A stretch of DNA of 45,135 nucleotides. It comes from Escherichia phage BMA1. The stretch lies in sequence record PQ178821.1, one strand, 5' to 3'. Below the pieces are notes generated by a model. The model had not been told where the DNA came from. It saw only the letters and a program-made list of their open reading frames with translations, and ran no database searches. Below are positions 16,295 to 45,025 of this stretch, in pieces (within the stretch, counting starts at the first letter, position 1; each line of letters opens with the position of its first letter). The position numbers and the translations under genes were made by a program.

Positions 16295-16608
16295 TTGAGG
16301 CGGCGCGACGCTTTTATGGCCCGCCGCCACCCTCCGAAGATTTAGCCGCTAGTTTATGGGGTGCGGCCCCCGAAGATGTTTGTCCGCCTGTTGCGCTATG
16401 GCCTGACAACGCGAAGATAGTCGCAGTATTCACAGATTGCTCCACGCAATGGCGCACCGGATTTGGTGGCGCATACGGCATCGACTACGGCGTGCTGGAG
16501 TGGTTATTTAAGATGCACGGTATCGAAAACGAGCAGCGCGCGTTTAAAGATATCAAGCTAATGGAACGCATCGCGCTTGATGAAATGGCGCAGCAGAACC
16601 CCGCATAG
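15932..16608 (+). CDS. tail assembly chaperone -1 frameshift fusion (GT-like)
   Basis: Slip at A_AAA_AAC (16285..16291) continues in -1 frame as KKLIEAARRFYGPPPP... to TAG at 16606..16608. Confidence 0.65.
16285..16291 (+). other. programmed -1 ribosomal frameshift slippery heptamer A_AAA_AAC
   Basis: XXXYYYZ heptamer in zero frame of the chaperone gene, 4 nt before its stop; -1 frame stays open for ~105 codons. Confidence 0.6.
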
Positions 16609-16610
16609 TG

Positions 16611-16929
16611 AAGCGGGACAGGCGGGACGTCCCGTTTTGTCCCGCCTCTGTAAAACCACATATCTAATCACTTTTATTGCATAAACTCAAAGCGGGACAG
16701 GCGGGACGTCCCGTTTTGTCACACCCTGTAAATGTGCATACCTATGCAGATTTCGTGCATAAACCAAACGGGACAAAAAGCGGGACAAACACGAGGCGGG
16801 ACAAAGCGGGACAGCACCCCGTCCCCGCCAGTGCTGCCGCGGTTTTTAGCCGATCGGGACAGCGGGACAGCACCCCAGTCTTTCAGACTAGACGGGGGTC
16901 AATGGCCCCCCTCGTCTGAGACTGAATAA
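16611..16929. repeat. GCGGGACA iteron array with tandem ~76-bp subunits and terminal hairpin (copy 1)
   Basis: At least 9 GCGGGACA-like units; palindromes GCGGGACGTCCCG+TTTT at 16622..16638 and 16701..16717; 3' part near-identical to 44851..45025. Confidence 0.7.
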
Positions 16930-16992: not shown

Positions 16993-19635
16993 ATGGCAGA
17001 TCAGGCAGCAGGCATCACGCTAAAGGCTGATGTTGCACAAATCAGAACGGCAAATACTGTGCTGGACTCCTTCGCACAGAAATCCGAGAACACAGAAAAC
17101 AAGGTTAAGAAATTAAACGACACCCTCGGCAAATCCAAAAAGGTGACGAGTGACGCCGCGGGCGGAATGGAAAAGCTGGCGAATGAATCGCAGCGCGCCG
17201 CCGATGGCATGACGAAACAGGAGCGACTTGCCAACAGGTTAGGAATGTCGACCAAAAACCTGGGCTTTGCCTCGCGTAACGCCGCATTCCAGTTACAGGA
17301 TATCGCAGTTACGCTTGAGATGGGGATGCCTGTTCACCGCGTCATGCTTCAGCAGCTACCGCAGCTAACTGGGGCGTTCGGTGGACTGGGTAACACGCTG
17401 CGTTATGTTGCGGGCTTCCTCGGGCCAGTAGGGATCGGCCTTGCCGCCGTAACGGCAACGTTAGGCGTGGGAGTGGCAATTACGTCCCGCGCAGAGAACC
17501 AGGTCGCCGCGCTTAACAAGACGCTGGCACTTTCCGGTAACATTTCCGGCCTGACGGCAAACCAGATCCTGGTGCTATCCGAGAACGCAGAGCGCATGGG
17601 CGGGTCGTTCCGCAAGACGCGTGACACAATCCAGGCGCTGGCGGCGGCTGGTGTGAAAGCGGGTGCGGACTTCGGCGCACTGGCGAAGGTGGTGAATGAC
17701 TTCTCGAAGGTGTCCAGCCAGCCGATCGAAGATGTGGTCGCGGCGGTGGCGAAGCTGTCAACCGACCCGGTAGGCGGCTTGCGCGCACTGGCGGATAAGT
17801 ATCACGTTGTAAACGAAGCGCAGATCCAGCAGGTACAATCCCTGGTGGATATGGGTCGTGAGACTGAAGCGGTTGCGTTGGCTAACAAAACCGCCGCCGC
17901 GTCGTTCACCACTATGACCAACGATATCAAGGCGAACATGGGTACGCTTGAGCGTTCTATGAACGTCGTCACATCGGCAGCTAAATCCATGTGGGACGCC
18001 ATCCTGGATGTGGGTCGCGCGCAGTCCTCCAATGAGTCAGAGATGAAAGCGCGTGAATCCTTGCAGCGCATGACCACTGCTTACTATGCCGAGATGAAAG
18101 CGGTAAACGCTGCCGGTGGGGTTATGACCGAAGCGCAGAAAGCACGTATTAACATGCTTTACAGCGAACTGGTCGCCCAGGAAAAGGTAGTGGCGTCGCT
18201 CACCCTGCGTAACCGTGCGGAGCGAGACAACGCCCGCGCCGCAGACGAATCCGCAAAGGCGAACGAGGAGGCCAACCGCACCGCCCGCGACCGCGCCGCG
18301 TTTGAAAAGGAGTACGCAACTAACGCGAAGAAGCGCGCCGACGAGATCGCCCGCCTCAATTTGCTTAATAAGCGCGGCGTTATTGATGAGAAAGAGCTTG
18401 CCGAGGCGGTGAAGCAGGTAAACGAGCGCTACAAAGACCCGGCCCCGAAGAAGGCCGCGGCAGTTCGAGTCGATGCCGGGCTGAAAATGCTGGAAGTCGC
18501 GCGAAGCGAATTAGCCCAGCTTCGTGAGTCTGGAAAGCAGATCGAAGCCAACGCATCGACGCAGACCCGCACGCAACGCGCGCAAGCGGCCCTAAACAAG
18601 CTGATCGCGGATAATGAGCAGTTAATCGCCGCAAGCAAAGAAAGAGCACTAACGGCAGCAGAGAAGCAGCAATTAGTCGAGTTCGGGCGCGTGAAGGAAG
18701 TCCGCGAGCAGATCGTCGAAGAAGCCAAATTGCTGGACGCGAAAGAGAAGCAGGTCAAGGCGCACGCGCAGATCGATGCCTTCGTTAAGAACCAGAACGC
18801 CGAGCTAAAAGCCACCGCTGCGGGCTATGCGCTTTCCACTCGCGAAGCGGCAAACCTGCGTGATGAATTGCAGCTAATTGACCGCCTGAAGCGGGTTGGC
18901 GCTAACGATACCGATATAGACAAGGCGGTGTCTAAGCTGCGTGAAGTGCAGGAAGCACAGACCGGTGCTAACGCCTCGCTATGGGATGGCTTCAGCCGCG
19001 GGCTTAAGGATAGTGTGGATGATATGGGTAACGGATATACGCAGATGACGTCGCTCACAAAATTCACGTTCAGCGCTATGCAAGACACGATGAACGAGTT
19101 TTTCGAGACGGGCAAGCTGAACGCAAAGGATATGGTTAAGTCCATCCTTAGCGAATTAATCAAGCTGGCTACCTCGCAGGCTTTCAAGTCGATCGTTAGC
19201 GCTTTCGGTGGCGACGGCGGCAAAAACGGATTGTTCGGCGCTATCTTCTCGGGCCTCACCAAGAATGCGGACGGCGGAGCGTACGCAGGAGGCAATCTCG
19301 CGGCCTATTCCGGGAAAGTGGTAAGCCAGCCTACCTTTTTCAGTTATGGCGTCCAGGCGTTCGCTAAGGGCGCTGGGTTGATGGGTGAGGCTGGACCCGA
19401 GGCCATCATGCCACTGAAGCGCGGGCCGGACGGGAAACTGGGCGTTGCCGCGTCTGGCGTAGGTGGGGGGATGGTCGTGACGACTAACGTTTACACGGGG
19501 ACCGGTAAAACGGATACCAGTGTCAGCGGGCCGGACCCCCGTACCGCGCAGGCGTTCGGCAAGCAAATCACCGAGGCGGTGAAGTCCGAGATCGTGAAGG
19601 CAACGAAACCGGGTGGTGTACTTTACAAACGATGA
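16993..19635 (+). CDS. tail tape measure protein (880 aa)
   Basis: Long Ala/Gln/Lys-rich helical protein downstream of G/GT chaperone genes. Confidence 0.9.
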   Translation: MADQAAGITLKADVAQIRTANTVLDSFAQKSENTENKVKKLNDTLGKSKKVTSDAAGGMEKLANESQRAADGMTKQERLANRLGMSTKNLGFASRNAAFQLQDIAVTLEMGMPVHRVMLQQLPQLTGAFGGLGNTLRYVAGFLGPVGIGLAAVTATLGVGVAITSRAENQVAALNKTLALSGNISGLTANQILVLSENAERMGGSFRKTRDTIQALAAAGVKAGADFGALAKVVNDFSKVSSQPIEDVVAAVAKLSTDPVGGLRALADKYHVVNEAQIQQVQSLVDMGRETEAVALANKTAAASFTTMTNDIKANMGTLERSMNVVTSAAKSMWDAILDVGRAQSSNESEMKARESLQRMTTAYYAEMKAVNAAGGVMTEAQKARINMLYSELVAQEKVVASLTLRNRAERDNARAADESAKANEEANRTARDRAAFEKEYATNAKKRADEIARLNLLNKRGVIDEKELAEAVKQVNERYKDPAPKKAAAVRVDAGLKMLEVARSELAQLRESGKQIEANASTQTRTQRAQAALNKLIADNEQLIAASKERALTAAEKQQLVEFGRVKEVREQIVEEAKLLDAKEKQVKAHAQIDAFVKNQNAELKATAAGYALSTREAANLRDELQLIDRLKRVGANDTDIDKAVSKLREVQEAQTGANASLWDGFSRGLKDSVDDMGNGYTQMTSLTKFTFSAMQDTMNEFFETGKLNAKDMVKSILSELIKLATSQAFKSIVSAFGGDGGKNGLFGAIFSGLTKNADGGAYAGGNLAAYSGKVVSQPTFFSYGVQAFAKGAGLMGEAGPEAIMPLKRGPDGKLGVAASGVGGGMVVTTNVYTGTGKTDTSVSGPDPRTAQAFGKQITEAVKSEIVKATKPGGVLYKR

Positions 19636-21798: not shown

Positions 21799-22406
21799 CC
21801 ACATTTAAATTATACGGCGTTTTAGGACGTCGATTCGGTAAAGTACATAAGCTGGACTGCTTCACTCCGGGCGAGGGTATTACCGGTCTGTGCGTGAAGT
21901 TACCCGGCTTACAGGACTTTCTAATGTCGGCCCACCTGGACAATATGATGTTCAAGGTGCGCAAAGGCGACCACACGATGACCGGATACGACGAGTTGGG
22001 GGAGTTCCACGGCGACCGCGTAGTGACCATCGCACCGGTTATGACCGGCGCAAAACGCGGACTAGGCCAATTACTGGCGGGCGTAGCCATCGTGGTGGCG
22101 TCGTTCTACACCGGCGGCCTTGCGACTGCCGCTTTTGGTGCTTCCGCCGCGACCGCTGCCGCGATTGGTACGGCGACGTTCTCGTTCGGGATGTCTATGG
22201 CGCTGGGGGGCGTTATGCAATTGCTATCGCCGCAACCGAAAGGATTGCAGACACGGCAGGACGTGGATAACAAGGCGTCGTATGCGTTCGGCGGACCGGT
22301 AAACACGACCGCGCAAGGCACGGCACTTGGTGTATTATGGGGCGAACGTGAGATCGGCGGCGCTATTATTTCAGCCGGAATCGTAACAGAGGACTTGAAC
22401 GAATGA
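21789..22406 (+). CDS. tail assembly protein I-like (205 aa)
   Basis: Position between K-like and J-like genes; hydrophobic Gly/Ala-rich C-terminal half. Confidence 0.7.
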   Translation: MAMTTFKLYGVLGRRFGKVHKLDCFTPGEGITGLCVKLPGLQDFLMSAHLDNMMFKVRKGDHTMTGYDELGEFHGDRVVTIAPVMTGAKRGLGQLLAGVAIVVASFYTGGLATAAFGASAATAAAIGTATFSFGMSMALGGVMQLLSPQPKGLQTRQDVDNKASYAFGGPVNTTAQGTALGVLWGEREIGGAIISAGIVTEDLNE

Positions 22407-25400
22407 CGATTATCTACGACGTCACTGGGCATAAAGGCGGCGGCGGCAAACAGCACACCCCACAGGAGACACCAGATAGCCTGCATTCGCTGGCTAAAAT
22501 CCGCATCTTGCTTGCATTGGGTGAAGGGGAATTCGAAAGTATTACCAGCGCAAGCGAATTGCGGCAGCGTGTATACCTGGACGGCACGCCGATCCAGAAC
22601 GCGGACTTGTCCGAAAACTTCCCCGGCGCGCGAGTGGAGTTCCGCCCAGGCACACAGCACCAGGACGTGATCCACGGATTTTCAGCGGTGGAAAGTGAGC
22701 AATCCATCGGTGTAAAACTGGAAAATGGCACGCCGTGGGTGCGCCAGATTAATGACACCAGTCTTGACGCTGTGCGCGTCCGCATCGGCATTCCCGCCCT
22801 GTACACCAACGAAGACAACGGCGACCTGGTGGGCGGGCGCATCGACTACAAAATCGTTGTGTATACGGACAACGCTGATCCGCGTGAGTTTACCTTCGCT
22901 GCCGTTGGTAAAACAATGTCGCTGTACGAGCGCGATCACCGCATCGAGTTACCGCCGAACGCTAATACCGGCTGGCGAGTTGAGGTACACCGCACGACGG
23001 CGGACTCCACATCGGCGAAAGTGGTCAATGATATCCGCGTACAATCCATTACAGAGATTATCGACGCCCGCCTGCGATATCCGCTAACCGCGCTGTTGTT
23101 CGTGGAGTTCGACGCGAAGGCGTTCCAGAACATCCCGCGCGTGTCCATCAAGTGCAAAGGTCGCAAGGTGTTGGTCCCGAACAACTACGACCCAATTAAT
23201 CATACCTATTCAGGTGACTGGGATGGCACTTTCAAACGCGCATGGACGGATAACCCCGCGTGGCACTGGTACGATATTTGTATTACTGAGCGCTTCGGCC
23301 TCGGTCGTAGGATCAAGCCGCAGATGTTAAACCGATATGCGCTTTACCAGATTGCGCAGCGCTGCGATCAACTGGTAAGCGACGGCAACGGTGGTCGCGA
23401 AATCCGCTTTAAGAATGATATGTACATTCAGTCACAGACGGATGCCTGGACCGTGCTTAAGGATTTAGCCGCCATTTTCGCCGGAATGACCTGGTGGGGC
23501 AACCAGATGTTGAATATCGTCAGTGACCAACCGGTCGCAGCAGTGTCGCACACTATCACCAACGCCTCGGTAATTGATGGTAGATTCGACTATGCATCCG
23601 GTAGCCAGAAAACACGGTATTCCACATTCGCGGTAGCATACGGCAACCCGAAGAACCACTACGAGGACGCCATCGCCACGGGCCAGCGCGTCGAACTGGT
23701 GCGCCGCCATAAGATTAACCGCCTCGATATAACGGCGATCGGCTGTACGCGTGAATCAGAAGCGCAACGCCGGGGGCACTGGGCGCTAATCTCCAACCAG
23801 CTTGACCAGCAAGTTAGCTTTAAGGTTGGCATGGAGGGACTATTCTTTATTCCGGGTAGCGTAGTCGCGATCGCCGATACAAACATTTCTGGTGGCTTCG
23901 AGACACGCGGCGGTCGCCTGTTGTCGGACCCTGGCACGCGTACCGTGCTTAACACGGACAGCGAAATCACGTTCCGCCCAGGTGATAAATTCCTGGTACG
24001 CACCGATAGCGGTAATGTGGAGACTCGCGAGATCGCCAGCGTCAACGGCAACAAGGTCACGCTAAAAACTGCACTGGACGCCGACCCGATTCCCGATCAG
24101 CCATTTTGCGTTGATGGCGACGATATCCAGTTGCAGAAGTTCCGCATCACCGACCTGGAATACGACGACTCTACCAGCACTTTTTCAGTGCGCGGGATCG
24201 AATACAACGATAGCAAATATGATGCCGTTGATAATGGCGCTCGCCTTGACCCCGGCATCTTTACGCAAGTGCCCGACGGTGTGATGAAGGGGCCAGAATC
24301 CGTGACCATCACCCCGTCGCAGATTTCATCGCAAGGCCAGCTAATCACCAACGTTGATATTGTATTCCCGCCGGTGAAGGATGCCGTGGTGTATGAAATC
24401 CAGTGGCGACGCACCAGCTTGCAGAATATGGAAATCCAGTGGGGTAACGACTGGGTAAACATCCCACGTACGGCATCGAACGGCGCGCACATCCCTAACG
24501 TGTTTTCCGGTAACTACCAGGCACGCGTCCGCGCGATCGGTATGGGTGAGATTTCATCACCGTGGGTGTCGTCTGCCATCACGCCGGTGGAAGGTCGTCT
24601 CGGCGGTCTTAACGCGCCTATCATCACCAACGCGATTTCGGGCCTTCACCAAATTTTGTGGAAGTGGAACCACAACAACGCCGCGACGGATATTTCGTAT
24701 ACCGAGCTTGAGGTCCGCAAGACGGGCGAAACGGAATGGAAGTTCTTAACCAACGTCCCATATCCTGGGTCGGAGTATGCGCAAACGTCGCTGGAGTTCG
24801 GGATCTACCAGCAGTTGCGCGCTCGCGTAGCGGATAAAATCGGCAACCTATCGGACTGGTCCGCCCCGTTTGAAGGCCAGGTGAGTGACAAAGTTGACGA
24901 GTATATGAAGGGGCTGGACGACGAGTTCTTGACTTCTGAGGACGGTAAACGCTTCCAGGAAGCGATCGATACCATGCCGCAAGGCATTTATGAGGCTATG
25001 CTCACCGACGCACAGCAATTGTTTAACGCCCGCGCCGAGTACAAGGGGATTTATGCAGAAATCTCGGTCGCGTATAACGTGGCGGCAGATGCCCACCAGG
25101 CGGTAGCGCAACTGGAGACGTTGATCGGCACGCGACTTGACGATGCTGAAGCGGCGATCCACACGTTGCAGACGGCGCAGAGTACGCAAGAGCAGGCATT
25201 CGCCCAGTACCAGCAAACTGTTGCCGCTAAGTTTTCGGAACAGGAAGCAGCCATCCAGCAGGTACAAACGGCAACGGCAGACGTAGCGGGCGCACTGGCG
25301 GAGTATAAGACCCAGGTCGCGGCGCAGTTCGGTCAGCAGTCCGCAGCTATCGAGCAGAAGATGACGTCTTCGTTTAACCACGCGGGCGGTAGTGCCACAT

Positions 25401-25822
25401 ACAGCCTTAAGGCTGGCGTGACGTATAACGGGACTTACTACGATGCCGGTATGCAGCTTTCGGTCGTGGCGGAAGGTGGCGCGGTTAAATCCCGCATCGC
25501 GTTCAAGGCGGACCAGTTCTACATCATGCACCCATCTAACGGGTCGCTTTCGTCCGCGTTTATTGTTGACGGCGGGGCGGTGTATATTGACACGGCCCGC
25601 ATCAAGAACGCGTCCATCAACTTCGCGCAGATCACGGACACGCTGCAATCGAATAACTACGACGGCAGCACGCGCGGATGGCGCTTAGGTAAAGATGGAA
25701 CGTTTATCAACCTGGGAGCCGGCAACGGCGGCGCGATGAAACAGACGAACACGCAAATCAGCGTCAGGGATGGAAACGGAGTTCTCCGCGTGCAGATTGG
25801 TGAAATCACGGGTAGTTGGTAG
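22403..25822 (+). CDS. tail tip / host specificity protein J-like (1139 aa)
   Basis: Size and position after M/L/K/I-like genes. Confidence 0.9.
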   Translation: MTIIYDVTGHKGGGGKQHTPQETPDSLHSLAKIRILLALGEGEFESITSASELRQRVYLDGTPIQNADLSENFPGARVEFRPGTQHQDVIHGFSAVESEQSIGVKLENGTPWVRQINDTSLDAVRVRIGIPALYTNEDNGDLVGGRIDYKIVVYTDNADPREFTFAAVGKTMSLYERDHRIELPPNANTGWRVEVHRTTADSTSAKVVNDIRVQSITEIIDARLRYPLTALLFVEFDAKAFQNIPRVSIKCKGRKVLVPNNYDPINHTYSGDWDGTFKRAWTDNPAWHWYDICITERFGLGRRIKPQMLNRYALYQIAQRCDQLVSDGNGGREIRFKNDMYIQSQTDAWTVLKDLAAIFAGMTWWGNQMLNIVSDQPVAAVSHTITNASVIDGRFDYASGSQKTRYSTFAVAYGNPKNHYEDAIATGQRVELVRRHKINRLDITAIGCTRESEAQRRGHWALISNQLDQQVSFKVGMEGLFFIPGSVVAIADTNISGGFETRGGRLLSDPGTRTVLNTDSEITFRPGDKFLVRTDSGNVETREIASVNGNKVTLKTALDADPIPDQPFCVDGDDIQLQKFRITDLEYDDSTSTFSVRGIEYNDSKYDAVDNGARLDPGIFTQVPDGVMKGPESVTITPSQISSQGQLITNVDIVFPPVKDAVVYEIQWRRTSLQNMEIQWGNDWVNIPRTASNGAHIPNVFSGNYQARVRAIGMGEISSPWVSSAITPVEGRLGGLNAPIITNAISGLHQILWKWNHNNAATDISYTELEVRKTGETEWKFLTNVPYPGSEYAQTSLEFGIYQQLRARVADKIGNLSDWSAPFEGQVSDKVDEYMKGLDDEFLTSEDGKRFQEAIDTMPQGIYEAMLTDAQQLFNARAEYKGIYAEISVAYNVAADAHQAVAQLETLIGTRLDDAEAAIHTLQTAQSTQEQAFAQYQQTVAAKFSEQEAAIQQVQTATADVAGALAEYKTQVAAQFGQQSAAIEQKMTSSFNHAGGSATYSLKAGVTYNGTYYDAGMQLSVVAEGGAVKSRIAFKADQFYIMHPSNGSLSSAFIVDGGAVYIDTARIKNASINFAQITDTLQSNNYDGSTRGWRLGKDGTFINLGAGNGGAMKQTNTQISVRDGNGVLRVQIGEITGSW

Positions 25823-25859: not shown

Positions 25860-26162
25860 ATGGCTTTCGGTGTAGCAACATGGGACGCGCAAGGGCGACC
25901 AAACAACTACGGTATCAAGCCCGTTTCGGTAGCCGGAATTATTAAACTGGCACAAGGTCAAACATCTGGGGCGTGGTCATTCGATATTCCGTCGGGGATG
26001 AAAGTAGGTTTTGCGGTTACGCTGGACGTAGGCGGCACTACGGTCGGTCGGGCGATCCGTGCCAGCGGGAACACGATAACAGTATCTGCCGCAAACAGCG
26101 TCGGTATTGGAAACTACCCCGCATCTGAATGTGAGGTAGTAGTTTTTGTGGAGAAAGCGTAA
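25860..26162 (+). CDS. hypothetical protein (100 aa)
   Basis: GGAGG RBS; shares a WDAxG segment with the next gene. Confidence 0.45.
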   Translation: MAFGVATWDAQGRPNNYGIKPVSVAGIIKLAQGQTSGAWSFDIPSGMKVGFAVTLDVGGTTVGRAIRASGNTITVSAANSVGIGNYPASECEVVVFVEKA

Positions 26163-26164
26163 AA

Positions 26165-26836
26165 ATGGCAAACTTCGGCGCGTTAATCGATAACAACAAC
26201 GGCAACCCATTCGTCACGCCAAACTCAACGCCATTCGTGCTCTATGCTAAGGTGTCCGCAAATTCAGTTGACGCAGGCGCGGGTTATAAGACGGCTAGTG
26301 GCGCAGTGGATATCCCCGCGAACTATCCGGCGATGGTGTTTATGCGGTCAAATAACCGTTGCGTCCTGGCGGCGTCACGATCAGGTAACCGGATTATATT
26401 TAGCGGAAGCATTCAGGGGCAAAATAACCCGCATTTTACCGTCACGGCGTACGTATTCGCGCGATTCCCGCAACCGCTGCCTCGATGGGGATTTGCAATT
26501 TGGGACGCCAGCGGGACTTGCATACTCACCAACGAGAGCAAGGTGCTCACCGATTTAGTCACAGTCGGCAGCTTCGGTAATAACGGAGGGATCAACATAG
26601 ACCAGACGTTGCCGGGTAAGTACGCGGTGTCGCCAATGTTAATGGGGGCTACTCTAATCCAAATATTCGTGCAAGGACAGCCGCAAATAATACAGATTTC
26701 GGCGGGCGCGGGCGCTTATGACAACGGAAGCGGCACTCGTATTAACGCAGTCGCAACGCAGGCGGGGTCTGGTAGCATCGCAGGATATCAAAACACCGGC
26801 GTTGCTCTGACTGCAATTAACGTTGATGGGATATGA
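26165..26836 (+). CDS. hypothetical protein (223 aa), possible tail accessory protein
   Basis: ORF downstream of J-like gene; Gly/Asn-rich. Confidence 0.5.
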   Translation: MANFGALIDNNNGNPFVTPNSTPFVLYAKVSANSVDAGAGYKTASGAVDIPANYPAMVFMRSNNRCVLAASRSGNRIIFSGSIQGQNNPHFTVTAYVFARFPQPLPRWGFAIWDASGTCILTNESKVLTDLVTVGSFGNNGGINIDQTLPGKYAVSPMLMGATLIQIFVQGQPQIIQISAGAGAYDNGSGTRINAVATQAGSGSIAGYQNTGVALTAINVDGI

Positions 26837-26854
26837 TTAAACCCCTTTCGGGGC

Positions 26855-27073
26855 TTATTTGCAGGTTGTGCTTTTGAAGTGGTCCACTGACACATACTGG
26901 AAGTTGAACGGGTATCCCGCCCTAAGCATTTTGTGTCCGCTAAAATCGGCGACCCCAAACACGGGGACTGAGTAATCCATGCCGCTATTCTGGTATGTCG
27001 CGTCGCAGACTTTAGCTGGCATGTTGGCACAACCGGACAAAAGAACCGCACAAATCATAATTAAAGTTTTCAT
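26855..27073 (-). CDS. small lipoprotein (72 aa), superinfection-exclusion candidate
   Basis: AGGAGA RBS, signal peptide with lipobox LLSGC; antisense between J-like and tail fiber genes. Confidence 0.6.
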   Translation of the reverse strand: MKTLIMICAVLLSGCANMPAKVCDATYQNSGMDYSVPVFGVADFSGHKMLRAGYPFNFQYVSVDHFKSTTCK

Positions 27074-27127
27074 GGTATCATCTCCTATATTTGGTTGAGT
27101 TTTAGTATTACACCGCTCAATCAAGAA

Positions 27128-27137
27128 TGCAACCAAT
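27128..27137 (-). promoter_or_regulatory. ATTGGTTGCA motif (reverse orientation) upstream of lipoprotein gene
   Basis: TGCAACCAAT on + strand, 55 nt upstream of the - strand ATG. Confidence 0.35.
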
Positions 27138-27153: not shown

Positions 27154-28893
27154 ATGGCAGCGGGTACTCTATCCGTAACGAATAACAGCAAGGCGGTTGT
27201 AGGGGTAGGCACAACGTTTACCGCGTTTAACGCTGGCGACTTCTTAACGCTGGTTGTAGGACAAGTCCCCTACACCGTGGCAATCGCGTCCATTGAAAGC
27301 GACACGTCGCTTACTCTGGTTCTGCCGTTCGACGGCCCAACGGCAACCGGCCTTGCGTGGGATGGCGTTAAGCGCGACACCATGTCCCTGGCAACTATGG
27401 GCGTGACCGTCCAGGCACAGAAAGCATTGCGCTTGATGATTGCGGATGAAAACAACTGGCGTGCAATCTTCGGCGACGCTGAAGAGATCACCATTACGCT
27501 GCCCAACGGGCAAGTTATGCAGGGTATGTCATGGGGCTATCTGTCGCAGTTGATGAAACAGATCGACCCCGTTGAGATGCGCAACCTGCAACAACAAGCC
27601 GCCGCATCGGAAGCAGCCGCGCAAGGATTTCGTAACGAGGCTGAAGGATTTCGAGACGGCGCGCAAGGATACCGCAACGAGGCGCTCCAATTCCGCACCG
27701 ACTGCGAAGGGCTGAAGAACGAAACGACAAACCTTCGCAACGATGCGCTCCAATTCCGCACCGACTGCGAAGGGCTGAAGAACGAAACGACAAACCTTCG
27801 CAACGATGCTAACACAGCTAAGACTGGCGCGGAGACGGCACGCGATCAGGCGCAGAACATCGCCGACGGTATGGACCCTGGCCAGTATATGCAGAAATCC
27901 GCAAACCTGAGCGATGTCGCTGATAAGGCGCAAGGCCGGGCGAATATGGGACTCGGCCCTACCGATGCCGTGGTGTTCGGAGGGGCTACCCTCAACGGTC
28001 CCTCGCGCGTCGACGGACCGCTGTTGCTCGGCAGGCAGCAGTGGGATGGGTCTAGCTGGGGGAGCTACGGACTACAATCGTCATTCGTCATCATGTCGCC
28101 GGATGGAGACTCCGAGCCGGGATTTTACATCAGGCCGCTATCGGGTGCGCCTGGGTACGCAACGTCGTTCACCTATAATCTCGCGATTAATCTTTTCAGC
28201 ACCGGTGCTCGCATCAAGGCGGTTAACTTCTCATCCAGCACTACGACTATGGGTTATAGCGAGATGTGGTCACGTGCATGTTTCCAGGGGCAGCCATACG
28301 ACGCCCAGGCGGGGGTTGAGAACTACCAATCGCTTGTCGCCGGTGCTTGCGGGACTATCGGACAGGGCTTTTACGGTGGCGTTGCGTTCGGCATGATGAC
28401 TTCTGGCAGGGCTGGGTGGCCTGTCGGTCAGATCTCGATCGGCGCACAAGACCGGGCGGCGGACGGCACTATCGGCCTGCAAATGCACTTCCGGTTTCAT
28501 TCATCCGGTAACATTACGTATACGGGGCCGGCGGGGTCGGGGTCATTCCAGCAAATCCCGGCATCTGACCGCAACATTAAGCATGATATTAAAGACGATA
28601 AATCCAGCACAGCATACGATAACATTCGAGCCATTCGATTCCGTAATTTCGTATTTAATGATGACGAGCAGGAGCGTATTCGTCGCGGGATTATCGCACA
28701 GGAGCTTGAAGAAATCGACCCGCTTTATGTTAAGCACCGCGAATACCACAACATGGAGCTTAACGGGCCGAAGATTACGCGACTGGAGCTTGACACGACG
28801 CCGCTGTTACTGGACACAATGCGAGCGTTGCAGGATACGATTAAGCAGGTGGAGGAGTTGAAGGCAGAGATCGCGGCGTTGAAGCAGGCGTAA
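27154..28893 (+). CDS. tail fiber protein with C-terminal S74-type intramolecular chaperone domain (579 aa)
   Basis: Heptad-like FRNEA/YRNEA repeats; SDRNIKHDI autocleavage-type motif near 28561; coiled-coil C-terminus. Confidence 0.85.
   Translation: MAAGTLSVTNNSKAVVGVGTTFTAFNAGDFLTLVVGQVPYTVAIASIESDTSLTLVLPFDGPTATGLAWDGVKRDTMSLATMGVTVQAQKALRLMIADENNWRAIFGDAEEITITLPNGQVMQGMSWGYLSQLMKQIDPVEMRNLQQQAAASEAAAQGFRNEAEGFRDGAQGYRNEALQFRTDCEGLKNETTNLRNDALQFRTDCEGLKNETTNLRNDANTAKTGAETARDQAQNIADGMDPGQYMQKSANLSDVADKAQGRANMGLGPTDAVVFGGATLNGPSRVDGPLLLGRQQWDGSSWGSYGLQSSFVIMSPDGDSEPGFYIRPLSGAPGYATSFTYNLAINLFSTGARIKAVNFSSSTTTMGYSEMWSRACFQGQPYDAQAGVENYQSLVAGACGTIGQGFYGGVAFGMMTSGRAGWPVGQISIGAQDRAADGTIGLQMHFRFHSSGNITYTGPAGSGSFQQIPASDRNIKHDIKDDKSSTAYDNIRAIRFRNFVFNDDEQERIRRGIIAQELEEIDPLYVKHREYHNMELNGPKITRLELDTTPLLLDTMRALQDTIKQVEELKAEIAALKQA
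27682..27807 (+). repeat. perfect in-frame tandem duplication (2 x 63 bp) inside tail fiber gene
   Basis: 27682..27744 identical to 27745..27807; encodes ALQFRTDCEGLKNETTNLRND twice. Confidence 0.8.
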
Positions 28894-28912: not shown

Positions 28913-28934
28913 GGGGCCGTGCGGCCCCTTTTTT
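28913..28934. terminator. bidirectional terminator between convergent operons
   Basis: GGGGCCG tg CGGCCCC stem with TTTTTT; separates + tail fiber gene and - strand block. Confidence 0.6.
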
Positions 28935-29508
28935 AGTTTGAGTTTTCCCAGTCCATTTTGCGCCGCACCAGGGGGCTTTCGTAGTATTCCTTCCCTTCCA
29001 CTTCCACTAAAGGCCAGTCATTAACAATCACGTACGGTTCCGCGATATCTTCAATCACGCCGTGCGCGTTATGTTGTCCGAAATCTACGCCCACCAGGAT
29101 AACCCCGGCAACTCGACGGGTTAGATACTCACGAGCGCAACGAGCCTCGACCAGTCCGCGACGGATGCCGCTGGTGGCCTTAACCTCATAGGTCCAGACG
29201 GCATCAATCATGTGTTCCCGGAAGTCGGGACCGGACTTAACCTTGCGCTTACCGACCATGATAATATCGCCGCGGTCGATTGTATTAGCACTAAACAGGC
29301 CGGTACGCATTAGCAAACCTTGCGGGATACAGCTACGCCCGCCCGCCTGCCCTTCGAGGTACATGCCTGCAAACATTTCGCCCAGCACACCGACCAGACG
29401 GCTTTGCTTGCACGCGTCGGACTTATACCGCCACTGGTCAAACTCTATGCTTGCGATCATTGCCGCCAGGTGGAATTGTTTACCAGATATTTCATATTCG
29501 CCGTACAT
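28933..29508 (-). CDS. hypothetical protein (191 aa)
   Basis: ORF with GAGGG RBS; D...EVK segment loosely compatible with a PD-(D/E)XK nuclease. Confidence 0.5.
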   Translation of the reverse strand: MYGEYEISGKQFHLAAMIASIEFDQWRYKSDACKQSRLVGVLGEMFAGMYLEGQAGGRSCIPQGLLMRTGLFSANTIDRGDIIMVGKRKVKSGPDFREHMIDAVWTYEVKATSGIRRGLVEARCAREYLTRRVAGVILVGVDFGQHNAHGVIEDIAEPYVIVNDWPLVEVEGKEYYESPLVRRKMDWENSN

Positions 29509-38301: not shown

Positions 38302-39081
38302 TTAACGGCGGCGACGTTTACGTGGCGCTTCGTCTTCGTCGTCGTCCTCATCTTCGTCATCGCGTGGCTTACGACGTTTGCGAGGTTTTTCATCTTCCTC
38401 ATCGTCGTCATCGCGGCGCTTGGACTTTTTGGACTTACGCGGCTTGTCATCTTCATCGTCATCGTCACGACGTTTTGACTTCTTAGCCTTGCGCGGGCTT
38501 TCATCTTCATCATCGTCGCCCAGGTCTTCGTCGGAACATGAAGACCCGCCACCGCCGAAGGCTTCGCCGTCTTCCCTGAAGCGCAAACCCAGCAAGCCAG
38601 CGCCGAGTCCCTTGCCGTTGGTGTTGTTCCACGCCCAAATATCCAGGGACACGTTGCAATAGCAACCGGAATAGATTTCCTGGCCTTCGATCTCGTCGCC
38701 TTCTACGGTCAGACCTTGTTCCGTCTGCTTCTCGCCCAGTGACGTTTGGATGTTAGGCTGTTTGAACGATTTAGCGTTGATGTACAACATGCCTTCAAAT
38801 TCTTCGGTTACTTCGTCACGCTCGTCACCGTCGCGAACTGCGCATTCCTTAGAATCCTGGGCGTAGTGGCGGTCCATCCACTTATCGGCGTTCTTCTCGG
38901 ATTTCAGCTTGTCGGTGAGCACTGCGCGCGCTGCCGCTTCCACTTTGTCCACCTGCGGGTCTTCTTTATCAAGAAGAATCACGGCACGGTATGCCGGTTT
39001 TTGTCCATCCTGTTTAGGGGTATCACGTTCCCAAATTTTCAGGAAACATACGCGCACATTTTTCAGGTTGACTTTAGCCAT
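38302..39081 (-). CDS. putative ssDNA-binding protein (DUF2815-like) with charged repetitive C-terminus (259 aa)
   Basis: MAKVNLKNVRV N-terminus; C-terminal tandem acidic/basic repeats; GAGGAA RBS. Confidence 0.5.
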   Translation of the reverse strand: MAKVNLKNVRVCFLKIWERDTPKQDGQKPAYRAVILLDKEDPQVDKVEAAARAVLTDKLKSEKNADKWMDRHYAQDSKECAVRDGDERDEVTEEFEGMLYINAKSFKQPNIQTSLGEKQTEQGLTVEGDEIEGQEIYSGCYCNVSLDIWAWNNTNGKGLGAGLLGLRFREDGEAFGGGGSSCSDEDLGDDDEDESPRKAKKSKRRDDDDEDDKPRKSKKSKRRDDDDEEDEKPRKRRKPRDDEDEDDDEDEAPRKRRRR

Positions 39082-39171
39082 TTTCCAATTCCTCATTTTC
39101 ACATGTATCGGGGTTATTGGAAGCCACCCCGTTCGGCTTGGTTGCTAATCTACTTGGTTGCGCTTAAGCGG

Positions 39172-44850: not shown

Positions 44851-45025
44851 TGCATAAACTAAGCGGGACAAAAAGCGGGACAGACAAGGGGCGGGACAAA
44901 GCGGGACAGCACCCCCGTCCCGCCCCGGATGGCGCGGCCTGGCGAGGAGCGGGACAGCGGGACAGCACCCCAGTCTTTCAGACTAGACGGGGGTCAATGG
45001 CCCCCCTCGTCTGAGACTGAATAAA
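44851..45025. repeat. GCGGGACA iteron array with terminal hairpin (copy 2)
   Basis: About 85% identical to 16756..16929 overall; last ~75 bp identical, including the imperfect hairpin. Confidence 0.7.

Follow-up and report, generated by a model that had tools for sequence, protein, structure and literature searches.

The window analysed here is the whole 45,135-nucleotide stretch of Escherichia phage BMA1 DNA. It is of complete size (45.1 kb) and Dhillonvirus-like: many Escherichia phages of the genus match it at ~92% identity across >90% of its length. A gpJ-like (lambda-J-like) tip protein is encoded at positions 22403-25822, with Pfam matches to FNIII-A_GpJ, Phage-tail_3, and Phage_Tail_Tip. 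Small genes matching phrog_557 and phrog_425, and then a Cor-type superinfection-exclusion gene on the other strand, lie between it and a 579-aa open reading frame, and the same gene order was found in phage PS2. Profile comparison matched the 579-aa frame to phrog_1980 (“tail fiber protein”) with E = 1.1e-138 over aa 1-578. At E<=1e-20, 309 homologues were found, many of which are Dhillonvirus proteins bearing the name tail fibre or lateral tail fibre; the homologues of PS2, Bas84, Bas85, jat, and Oekolampad all carry such an annotation. Together with a C-terminal Peptidase_S74 domain, these matches back the tail fibre assignment that an earlier note had made for this gene. The gene and its domains were mapped as follows.

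27154..28893, + strand: lateral (side) tail fibre gene of the Dhillonvirus type, 579 aa (phrog_1980 and annotated relatives)
27154..27558, + strand: anchor domain at the N-terminus, aa 1-135, conserved genus-wide (amino acid and nucleotide identity, alignments)
27568..27870, + strand: coiled-coil shaft, one continuous predicted alpha-helix of heptads, aa 139-239
27886..28563, + strand: distal receptor-binding region, mosaic and variable, aa 245-470 (identity comparisons)
28564..28893, + strand: C-terminal intramolecular chaperone (Peptidase_S74), aa 471-579 and stop codon, containing Ser471 and Lys476

The N-terminal 135 residues show 91-97% amino acid identity to homologues that are diverged over the remaining sequence, and the anchor-domain columns were nearly invariant in two homologue alignments. 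At the nucleotide level, the ~90% identity to many Dhillonvirus genomes is confined to nucleotides 1 to ~510 of the fibre gene. The distal tip is 91-95% identical in amino acid sequence to the homologues P0001-P0005, 75% identical to PS2, and ~50% identical to other Dhillonvirus fibres, and nucleotide identity to PS2 drops to 51-60% in this region. The C-terminal domain matches Pfam PF13884 at aa 471-526 (E = 7.7e-11, 42.6 bits against a cut-off of 22), as well as the C-terminus of the L-shaped tail fibre in PDB 8hqz (E = 5e-14). Residues S471 and K476 (S-x4-K) are invariant in 42 aligned homologues, and the domain is putatively self-cleaving. From established knowledge of the K1F endosialidase, we take Ser471 and Lys476 to be the catalytic dyad. 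The Dhillonvirus lateral fibre has been described as mediating passage through the O-antigen layer, before porin binding by the central fibre, and this O-antigen step was facultative in the Dhillonvirus isolates of the BASEL collection (PMC8594841, PMC11990801).

An AlphaFold2 monomer model of the fibre, built on a 42-sequence alignment, contains a single uninterrupted helix at aa 139-239, with block-mean pLDDT values of 72-93 over aa 151-240. The helix is the most confident part of the model; the overall mean pLDDT is 57.5, and only the helix and the intramolecular chaperone (IMC) region are well predicted. When residues are grouped by seven from aa 140 onwards, an unbroken run of fifteen heptads is seen, in which position 3 is occupied by A, C, T, or M (mean hydropathy +1.6) and position 6 by F, L, Y, I, or A (mean hydropathy +2.4), the remaining positions being polar. 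Tandem Repeats Finder detected a matching 21-nt periodicity at 27618-27685. In a phmmer search of the PDB, residues 155-249 of T7 gp17 aligned to fibre aa 144-237 (E = 1.7e-4), and the isolated shaft segment matched T7 gp17 with modest significance (E = 4.9e-4). The shaft is predicted on these grounds to be an alpha-helical heptad coiled coil, with a 63-bp tandem repeat sitting in mid-shaft. The uninterrupted helix, the a/d heptad pattern, and the similarity to T7 gp17 bear out the placement of the repeat in the fibre shaft by the earlier note. S74 chaperone domains act on trimeric fibres. By analogy, on the basis of this domain and of the published multimer model of Bas85 Gp29, the shaft is presumably trimeric.

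Direct comparison within the window revealed that positions 27682-27744 and 27745-27807 are adjacent and base-for-base identical, exactly as the earlier note had described.

27682..27744, + strand: copy 1 of the 63-bp unit, three heptads, ALQFRTDCEGLKNETTNLRND, aa 177-197
27745..27807, + strand: second 63-bp copy, 100% identity to the first and extra compared with all relatives, aa 198-218

The first base of the repeat is in codon phase 0 of the open reading frame 27154-28893 (+), and each unit is translated as ALQFRTDCEGLKNETTNLRND, so that one 21-residue block has been added to the protein, again in agreement with the earlier description. Identity at period 63 spans 128 nt (27682-27809), and the periodicity reaches back to 27673 if one mismatch is allowed (G27681 versus T27744). 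Accordingly, Tandem Repeats Finder reported an array at 27673-27809 with a period of 63, 2.2 copies, 98% matches, and a score of 267, the top score in the 45-kb window, which contains no other long perfect tandem repeat. Adjacent identical 63-mers are expected by chance ~5e-34 times in 45 kb. Minus-strand open reading frames that overlie the repeat (e.g., 27529-27933 and 27537-27815) were set aside as mechanical by-products; the plus-strand frame is homologous over its full length to hundreds of fibres. A phase-variable or contingency locus was also considered and rejected: there are two copies only, and 63 nt is a multiple of three, which keeps the frame.

Repeat counts among related phages, the check that the earlier note had proposed, were obtained from the eight relatives that share the BMA1 shaft type. 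These are PS2 (L001), which is an isolate, and seven contigs that come from different metagenome samples (L005-L010), with L005 being a partial gene. The 63-bp unit is present once, and with identical sequence, in all eight (8/8). In the aligned shaft blocks, flank identity to BMA1 is 99-100% for L005, L006, and L007, 95-100% for PS2, and ~96% for L008-L010. Since both the nearest and the next-nearest relatives carry a single copy, the two-copy state appears to be derived, and specific to the BMA1 lineage. It is this outgroup comparison, and not the identity of the copies, that indicates the derived state. The earlier note had argued that perfect identity implies a very recent duplication; this argument is weak, because the unit is invariant in all eight relatives, and identity between the two copies consequently says little about their age.

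The two-copy allele was not sighted a second time in the collections searched (IMG/VR, metagenome contigs, reference genomes, and proteins). The junction between the copies, AACGAT|GCGCTCC, is absent from the 12 loci compared (L001-L012), and a 36-mer across it had no match in IMG/VR. A 28-nt core of the unit had no match in IMG/VR or in 185,579 reference genomes, and a single match, to a single-copy allele, in the metagenome contigs. Among the related loci in IMG/VR, all 15 Dhillonvirus loci lacked the BMA1 shaft type, with a best segment identity of 70%. Neither the exact 579-aa protein nor two proteins encoded next to it were found in a collection of 15 billion proteins or in the contig index.

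The ends of the repeat coincide with short homologies, which could be read directly from the sequence.

27673..27683, + strand: CGCAACGAgGC at the upstream breakpoint, encoding R-N-E-A in the preceding heptad
27736..27746, + strand: CGCAACGAtGC at the junction, spanning the copy 1/copy 2 boundary
27799..27809, + strand: downstream homology CGCAACGAtGC, end of copy 2

The upstream element matches the other two at 10 of 11 positions, placing the breakpoints within the imperfect short homology CGCAACGA(G/T)GC. In the single-copy allele, the two homologies delimit the unit and encode R-N-E/D-A in heptads three apart. The junction retains the T of the downstream copy, which locates the crossover within the GC at 27745-27746. 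The repeat has the features expected of slippage or exchange at short homology: head-to-tail copies, zero spacer, a single-copy allele with near-identical flanks, and homology at both ends. During replication of a single-copy ancestor, a growing strand whose end was ...CGCAACGATGC would have slipped back by 63 nt, and would have re-paired with the near-identical ...CGCAACGAGGC, three heptads upstream. Alternatively, the same product could have come from sister genomes that exchanged unequally at this short homology. By either route, three heptads would end up in duplicate, and the sequence fits slippage and unequal recombination equally.

Because 63 nt correspond to 3 x 7 codons, or three heptads, the coiled coil stays in its a/d register. 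Between the anchor motifs, the duplication would have brought the shaft segment from 98 aa (14 heptads) to 119 aa (17 heptads). Coiled-coil geometry gives a rise of ~1.5 Å per residue, and the rod is expected to be ~3 nm longer. The anchor domain, the receptor-binding tip, and the chaperone domain would be unaltered.

Comparisons across the fibre family suggested that such changes are common. Shaft length, defined as the distance between the conserved anchor motifs SWGYLS and NLSD, was determined for 41 homologues, and was found to be 98, 105, 112, 119, 126, or 133 aa, i.e., 0 mod 7, in 40 of them. In the remaining homologue, from phage jat (isolated on E. coli K-12), the shaft is absent altogether. 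At 119 aa, or 17 heptads, BMA1 falls inside the family range, and its single-copy relatives (98 aa, 14 heptads) have the shortest shafts among the 40 shaft-bearing homologues; the commonest length is 133 aa. Tandem Repeats Finder analysis of the shaft-coding regions of 27 Dhillonvirus fibre loci revealed periods of 21, 42, and 63 nt only, with copy identities of 58-100%. Older 63-bp shaft repeats (75-80% identity) are present in several Dhillonvirus genomes, and older 42-bp repeats in other lineages. Recent changes were also seen. Within the same 300-nt stretch as the BMA1 repeat, L007 carries an independent, perfect 21-bp (one-heptad) tandem duplication, and PS2 has lost 15 bp in frame, with AAGC repeats on both sides. 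Oekolampad and SO-1 are ~99% identical apart from a 42-bp (two-heptad) tandem copy, which of the two only Oekolampad has. In-frame duplications appear, from these comparisons, to be an ordinary and recurrent kind of change in the Dhillonvirus fibre family, and the BMA1 duplication would be the youngest example of recurrent gain and loss of heptad blocks. A literature search on tail fibres, heptads, and tandem duplication found no paper.

The best explanation, and one that we consider probable, is that the repeat is a real, lineage-specific, in-frame 63-bp duplication in the coiled-coil shaft, which originated at short homology and is nearly neutral for receptor specificity. Evidence on the last point came from the tips. 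Fibres with the BMA1 tip type (at least 91% amino acid identity) have shafts of 98 aa (P0001-P0003), 105 aa (P0004), 119 aa (BMA1), and 133 aa (P0005), and one tip type is thus found on shafts of 14, 15, 17, and 19 heptads. Since the same tip occurs with several shaft lengths, and jat lacks a shaft, shaft length does not seem to be tightly coupled to tip type. The effect of the duplication on host range, which the earlier note had raised as a possibility, is probably small, and the duplication is most probably neutral or almost neutral with respect to receptor specificity.

One alternative is that the lengthening was adaptive, i.e., that a longer stalk was selected for better placement of the tip, for example through a thicker O-antigen layer or capsule, with altered adsorption or host range. 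It is of note here that Dhillonvirus lateral fibres serve to pass the O-antigen barrier (PMC11990801), and that in-frame tail-fibre duplications were selected during experimental coevolution of Enterococcus phage EfV12-phi1 (PMC6365445). The duplication also moved the lineage with the shortest shaft, of 98 aa, to 119 aa, nearer to the commonest length. However, the presence of a single tip type on four different shaft lengths argues against such selection, as does the existence of the shaftless isolate jat, which suggests that length is only loosely tuned. Moreover, the duplication occurred once, with no sign of parallel selection. On balance, adaptive lengthening is unlikely. A broader proposal is that the Dhillonvirus stalk is a heptad-quantised, quickly adjustable spacer, in which tandem blocks expand and contract often, so that reach varies in the population and is selected by O-antigen or capsule thickness. 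This proposal is speculative and rather improbable; if it were true, the BMA1 duplication would be an adaptive step that restored length to the lineage with the shortest shaft.

An artefact of assembly or sequencing, in which a true copy number of one, or of three or more, or a mixed stock, was reported as two, has little probability. Tandem repeats are a classic source of copy-number error, and the two-copy allele was seen in the BMA1 window alone, all eight relatives having one copy. The local sequence, however, offers few opportunities for a false duplication. In the reconstructed single-copy allele, exact repeats over 700 nt do not exceed 11 nt, every 15-mer of the unit is restricted to this site of the genome, and the 128-nt array can be spanned by ordinary reads of 150-250 nt. 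In addition, the duplication preserves both reading frame and heptad register exactly, and arose at short homology, like the independent insertions and deletions in the relatives. A false expansion from one copy to two needs a cycle in the assembly graph, for which the single-copy allele offers no sufficiently long repeat; some templates, at least, must therefore contain the junction. Of the repeat-collapse/expansion error that the earlier note had raised, the expansion part is unlikely, as there is no repeat longer than 11 nt in the region to close a graph cycle; the other part, an undercount (more than two copies) or a mixed population, is possible.

That the two-copy form is ancestral, and that the relatives lost one copy by precise deletion between the repeats, is highly improbable: deletion between perfect 63-bp tandem repeats is mechanistically easy, and recA-independent deletion of tandem repeats is established, but all eight relatives, including the more diverged L008-L010 (~96% in the shaft flanks), are single-copy, which would require either several independent precise deletions or a BMA1 lineage basal to all of them, and the 99-100% identity of the BMA1 flanks to the subset L005, L006, and L007 (95-100% for PS2) indicates that BMA1 is nested within the single-copy sequences.

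Taken as a real, lineage-specific duplication, the BMA1 repeat matters little by itself. It is one more allele of a well-described and highly mosaic fibre gene, and the copied part is structural, not receptor-binding. The more instructive result is the heptad quantisation seen across the family (14-19 heptads), in which a structural constraint channels mutation: the repeat periods in the shaft are 21, 42, and 63 nt only, at all ages, and several independent in-frame insertions and deletions lie at short homologies. In practical terms, the site of the 63-bp repeat is a flag for genome finishing, and a perfect repeat of this length is expected to be unstable in phage stocks for therapy or engineering, where it may collapse or expand.

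Among known systems, the closest counterparts are the lateral fibres of other Dhillonvirus phages (Bas85 RuthEpting Gp29, Bas84 Gp28, Bas18 Oekolampad, and PS2 orf27). These are encoded at the same position, downstream of gpJ and the receptor-binding protein locus, and share the architecture of the BMA1 fibre, with a coiled coil, a T5-like tip, and an IMC. The Bas85 homologue has been described in these terms, as a coiled coil followed by a T5-like fibre tip and an IMC (Humolli et al. 2025, PMC11990801, Fig 12C). By analogy, the BMA1 fibre may have the same role, that of an O-antigen-binding, facultative first-contact fibre. The BMA1 shaft is of the rarer “FR-type” (…GFRNEAEGFRDG…ALQFRTDCEGLKNETTNLRND…), which is common only to PS2 and a few metagenome contigs, and BMA1 is alone among the Dhillonvirus fibres compared in having the three-heptad block twice. 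It also lacks the last five residues (EELKK) of the Dhillonvirus fibres, owing to a GAA-to-TAA change.

The rod of T7 gp17 (residues ~150-260) resembles the BMA1 shaft directly in its heptads, with FRNEAE and FKNE motifs; this similarity is of no more than moderate significance, and may be inflated by compositional bias. The proximal region of T7 gp17 was reported to be a triple-helical coiled coil (bioRxiv 10.1101/2025.10.22.683886). The two proteins differ at both ends: T7 gp17 has an N-terminal adaptor for podovirus tail attachment, as opposed to the siphovirus baseplate anchor of BMA1, as well as a different distal tip, and it lacks the S74 chaperone domain. The L-shaped tail fibre pb1 of T5 and the K1F endosialidase, on the other hand, have a C-terminal Peptidase_S74 chaperone like that of BMA1 (PF13884, S-x4-K, 8hqz), and this likeness concerns the C-terminus of the fibre, not the duplicated segment.

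Duplications within fibre genes have been described in other phages. In Enterococcus phage EfV12-phi1, in-frame tail-fibre duplications of 1.8 kb were found (PMC6365445), and duplications of small domains in the T4 gp37 adhesin were reported by Tetart et al. (1996), as cited in PMC6365445. Like that of BMA1, these are head-to-tail, in-frame duplications within a fibre gene that change fibre length or valency. They differ in what was copied: the T4 and EfV12-phi1 duplications involve receptor-binding or large domains, with a demonstrated change in infectivity, whereas the BMA1 duplication comprises three structural heptads only.

The lateral tail fibre gene (579 aa; window 27154-28893, plus strand) was found to be strongly mosaic by domain when compared with that of the isolate PS2.

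Identity of the fibre gene to PS2, by domain:
Anchor, 84-95%
Shaft, 100%
Part of the tip, 51-60%
Chaperone domain, 96-100%

This domain-wise pattern of sequence identity suggests that recombination has broken the gene where its domains meet. At its N-terminus, over about 73 residues (aa 1-73, window 27154-27372), the fibre matches the N-terminus of PDB chain 23gd_B, named 'Distal tail protein gp20' (E 1.6e-4), and also phrog_9922, 'minor tail protein', which hints at a shared baseplate-docking module. The entire coiled coil is absent from some Dhillonvirus fibres, among them that of phage jat (L003) and the homologue P0018. The jat fibre, in which …LMKQIDP runs directly into SKFLAKSNNLSDV, looks as if a deletion had removed everything lying between a pair of IDP motifs.

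The stop codon of the fibre gene (window 28891-28893) is TAA, and the same codon is GAA in all close relatives, whose fibre reads 4 codons beyond it (…KQA-EELKK*). A single G-to-T change has shortened the chaperone domain by its five C-terminal residues. The stop is followed by a GC-rich, terminator-like hairpin, which is shared with a convergent gene.

28933-29508, minus strand, convergent gene

Repeats were also found outside the fibre gene, within a coding sequence and in two intergenic clusters (window 16590-16900 and 44860-44965) containing the motif (A)GCGGGAC(A).

38302-39102, minus strand, gene for a 266-aa protein with an in-frame tandem repeat at the protein's end
38399-38518, within that gene, 54-bp in-frame tandem repeat, 2.2 copies, 79%
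16612-16868, plus strand, intergenic cluster, five copies of AGCGGGAC
44862-44963, plus strand, intergenic cluster, five copies of AGCGGGAC
16611-16776, part of the intergenic motif clusters, 79-bp tandem repeat, 2.1 copies, 81%

The 54-bp repeat, in whose product acidic blocks alternate with basic ones (DDDDEDESPRKAKKSKRR / DDDDEDDKPRKSKKSKRR / DDDDEEDEKPRKRRKPR), is a further in-frame tandem repeat of this genome, and is older than the fibre-shaft duplication. The 79-bp repeat contains GCGGGACGTCCCG palindromes. The motif clusters may be sites where a regulator binds, or promoter/terminator arrays upstream of the 880-aa gene at 16993.

The locus between the lambda-J-like tip protein gene (gpJ) and the fibre gene (window 25860-27136), compared with metagenome contigs L006-L010 and with L002, L004 and L011, is likewise mosaic. 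In the window genome and PS2, it carries phrog_557, phrog_425 and a Cor-type exclusion gene. Contigs with the fibres closest to the window's instead carry a 321-aa DUF6453 protein and an opposite-strand lipoprotein, as do the Dhillonvirus isolates Bas84, Bas85, and Oekolampad, which shows that the fibre and the RBP locus have been reassorted.
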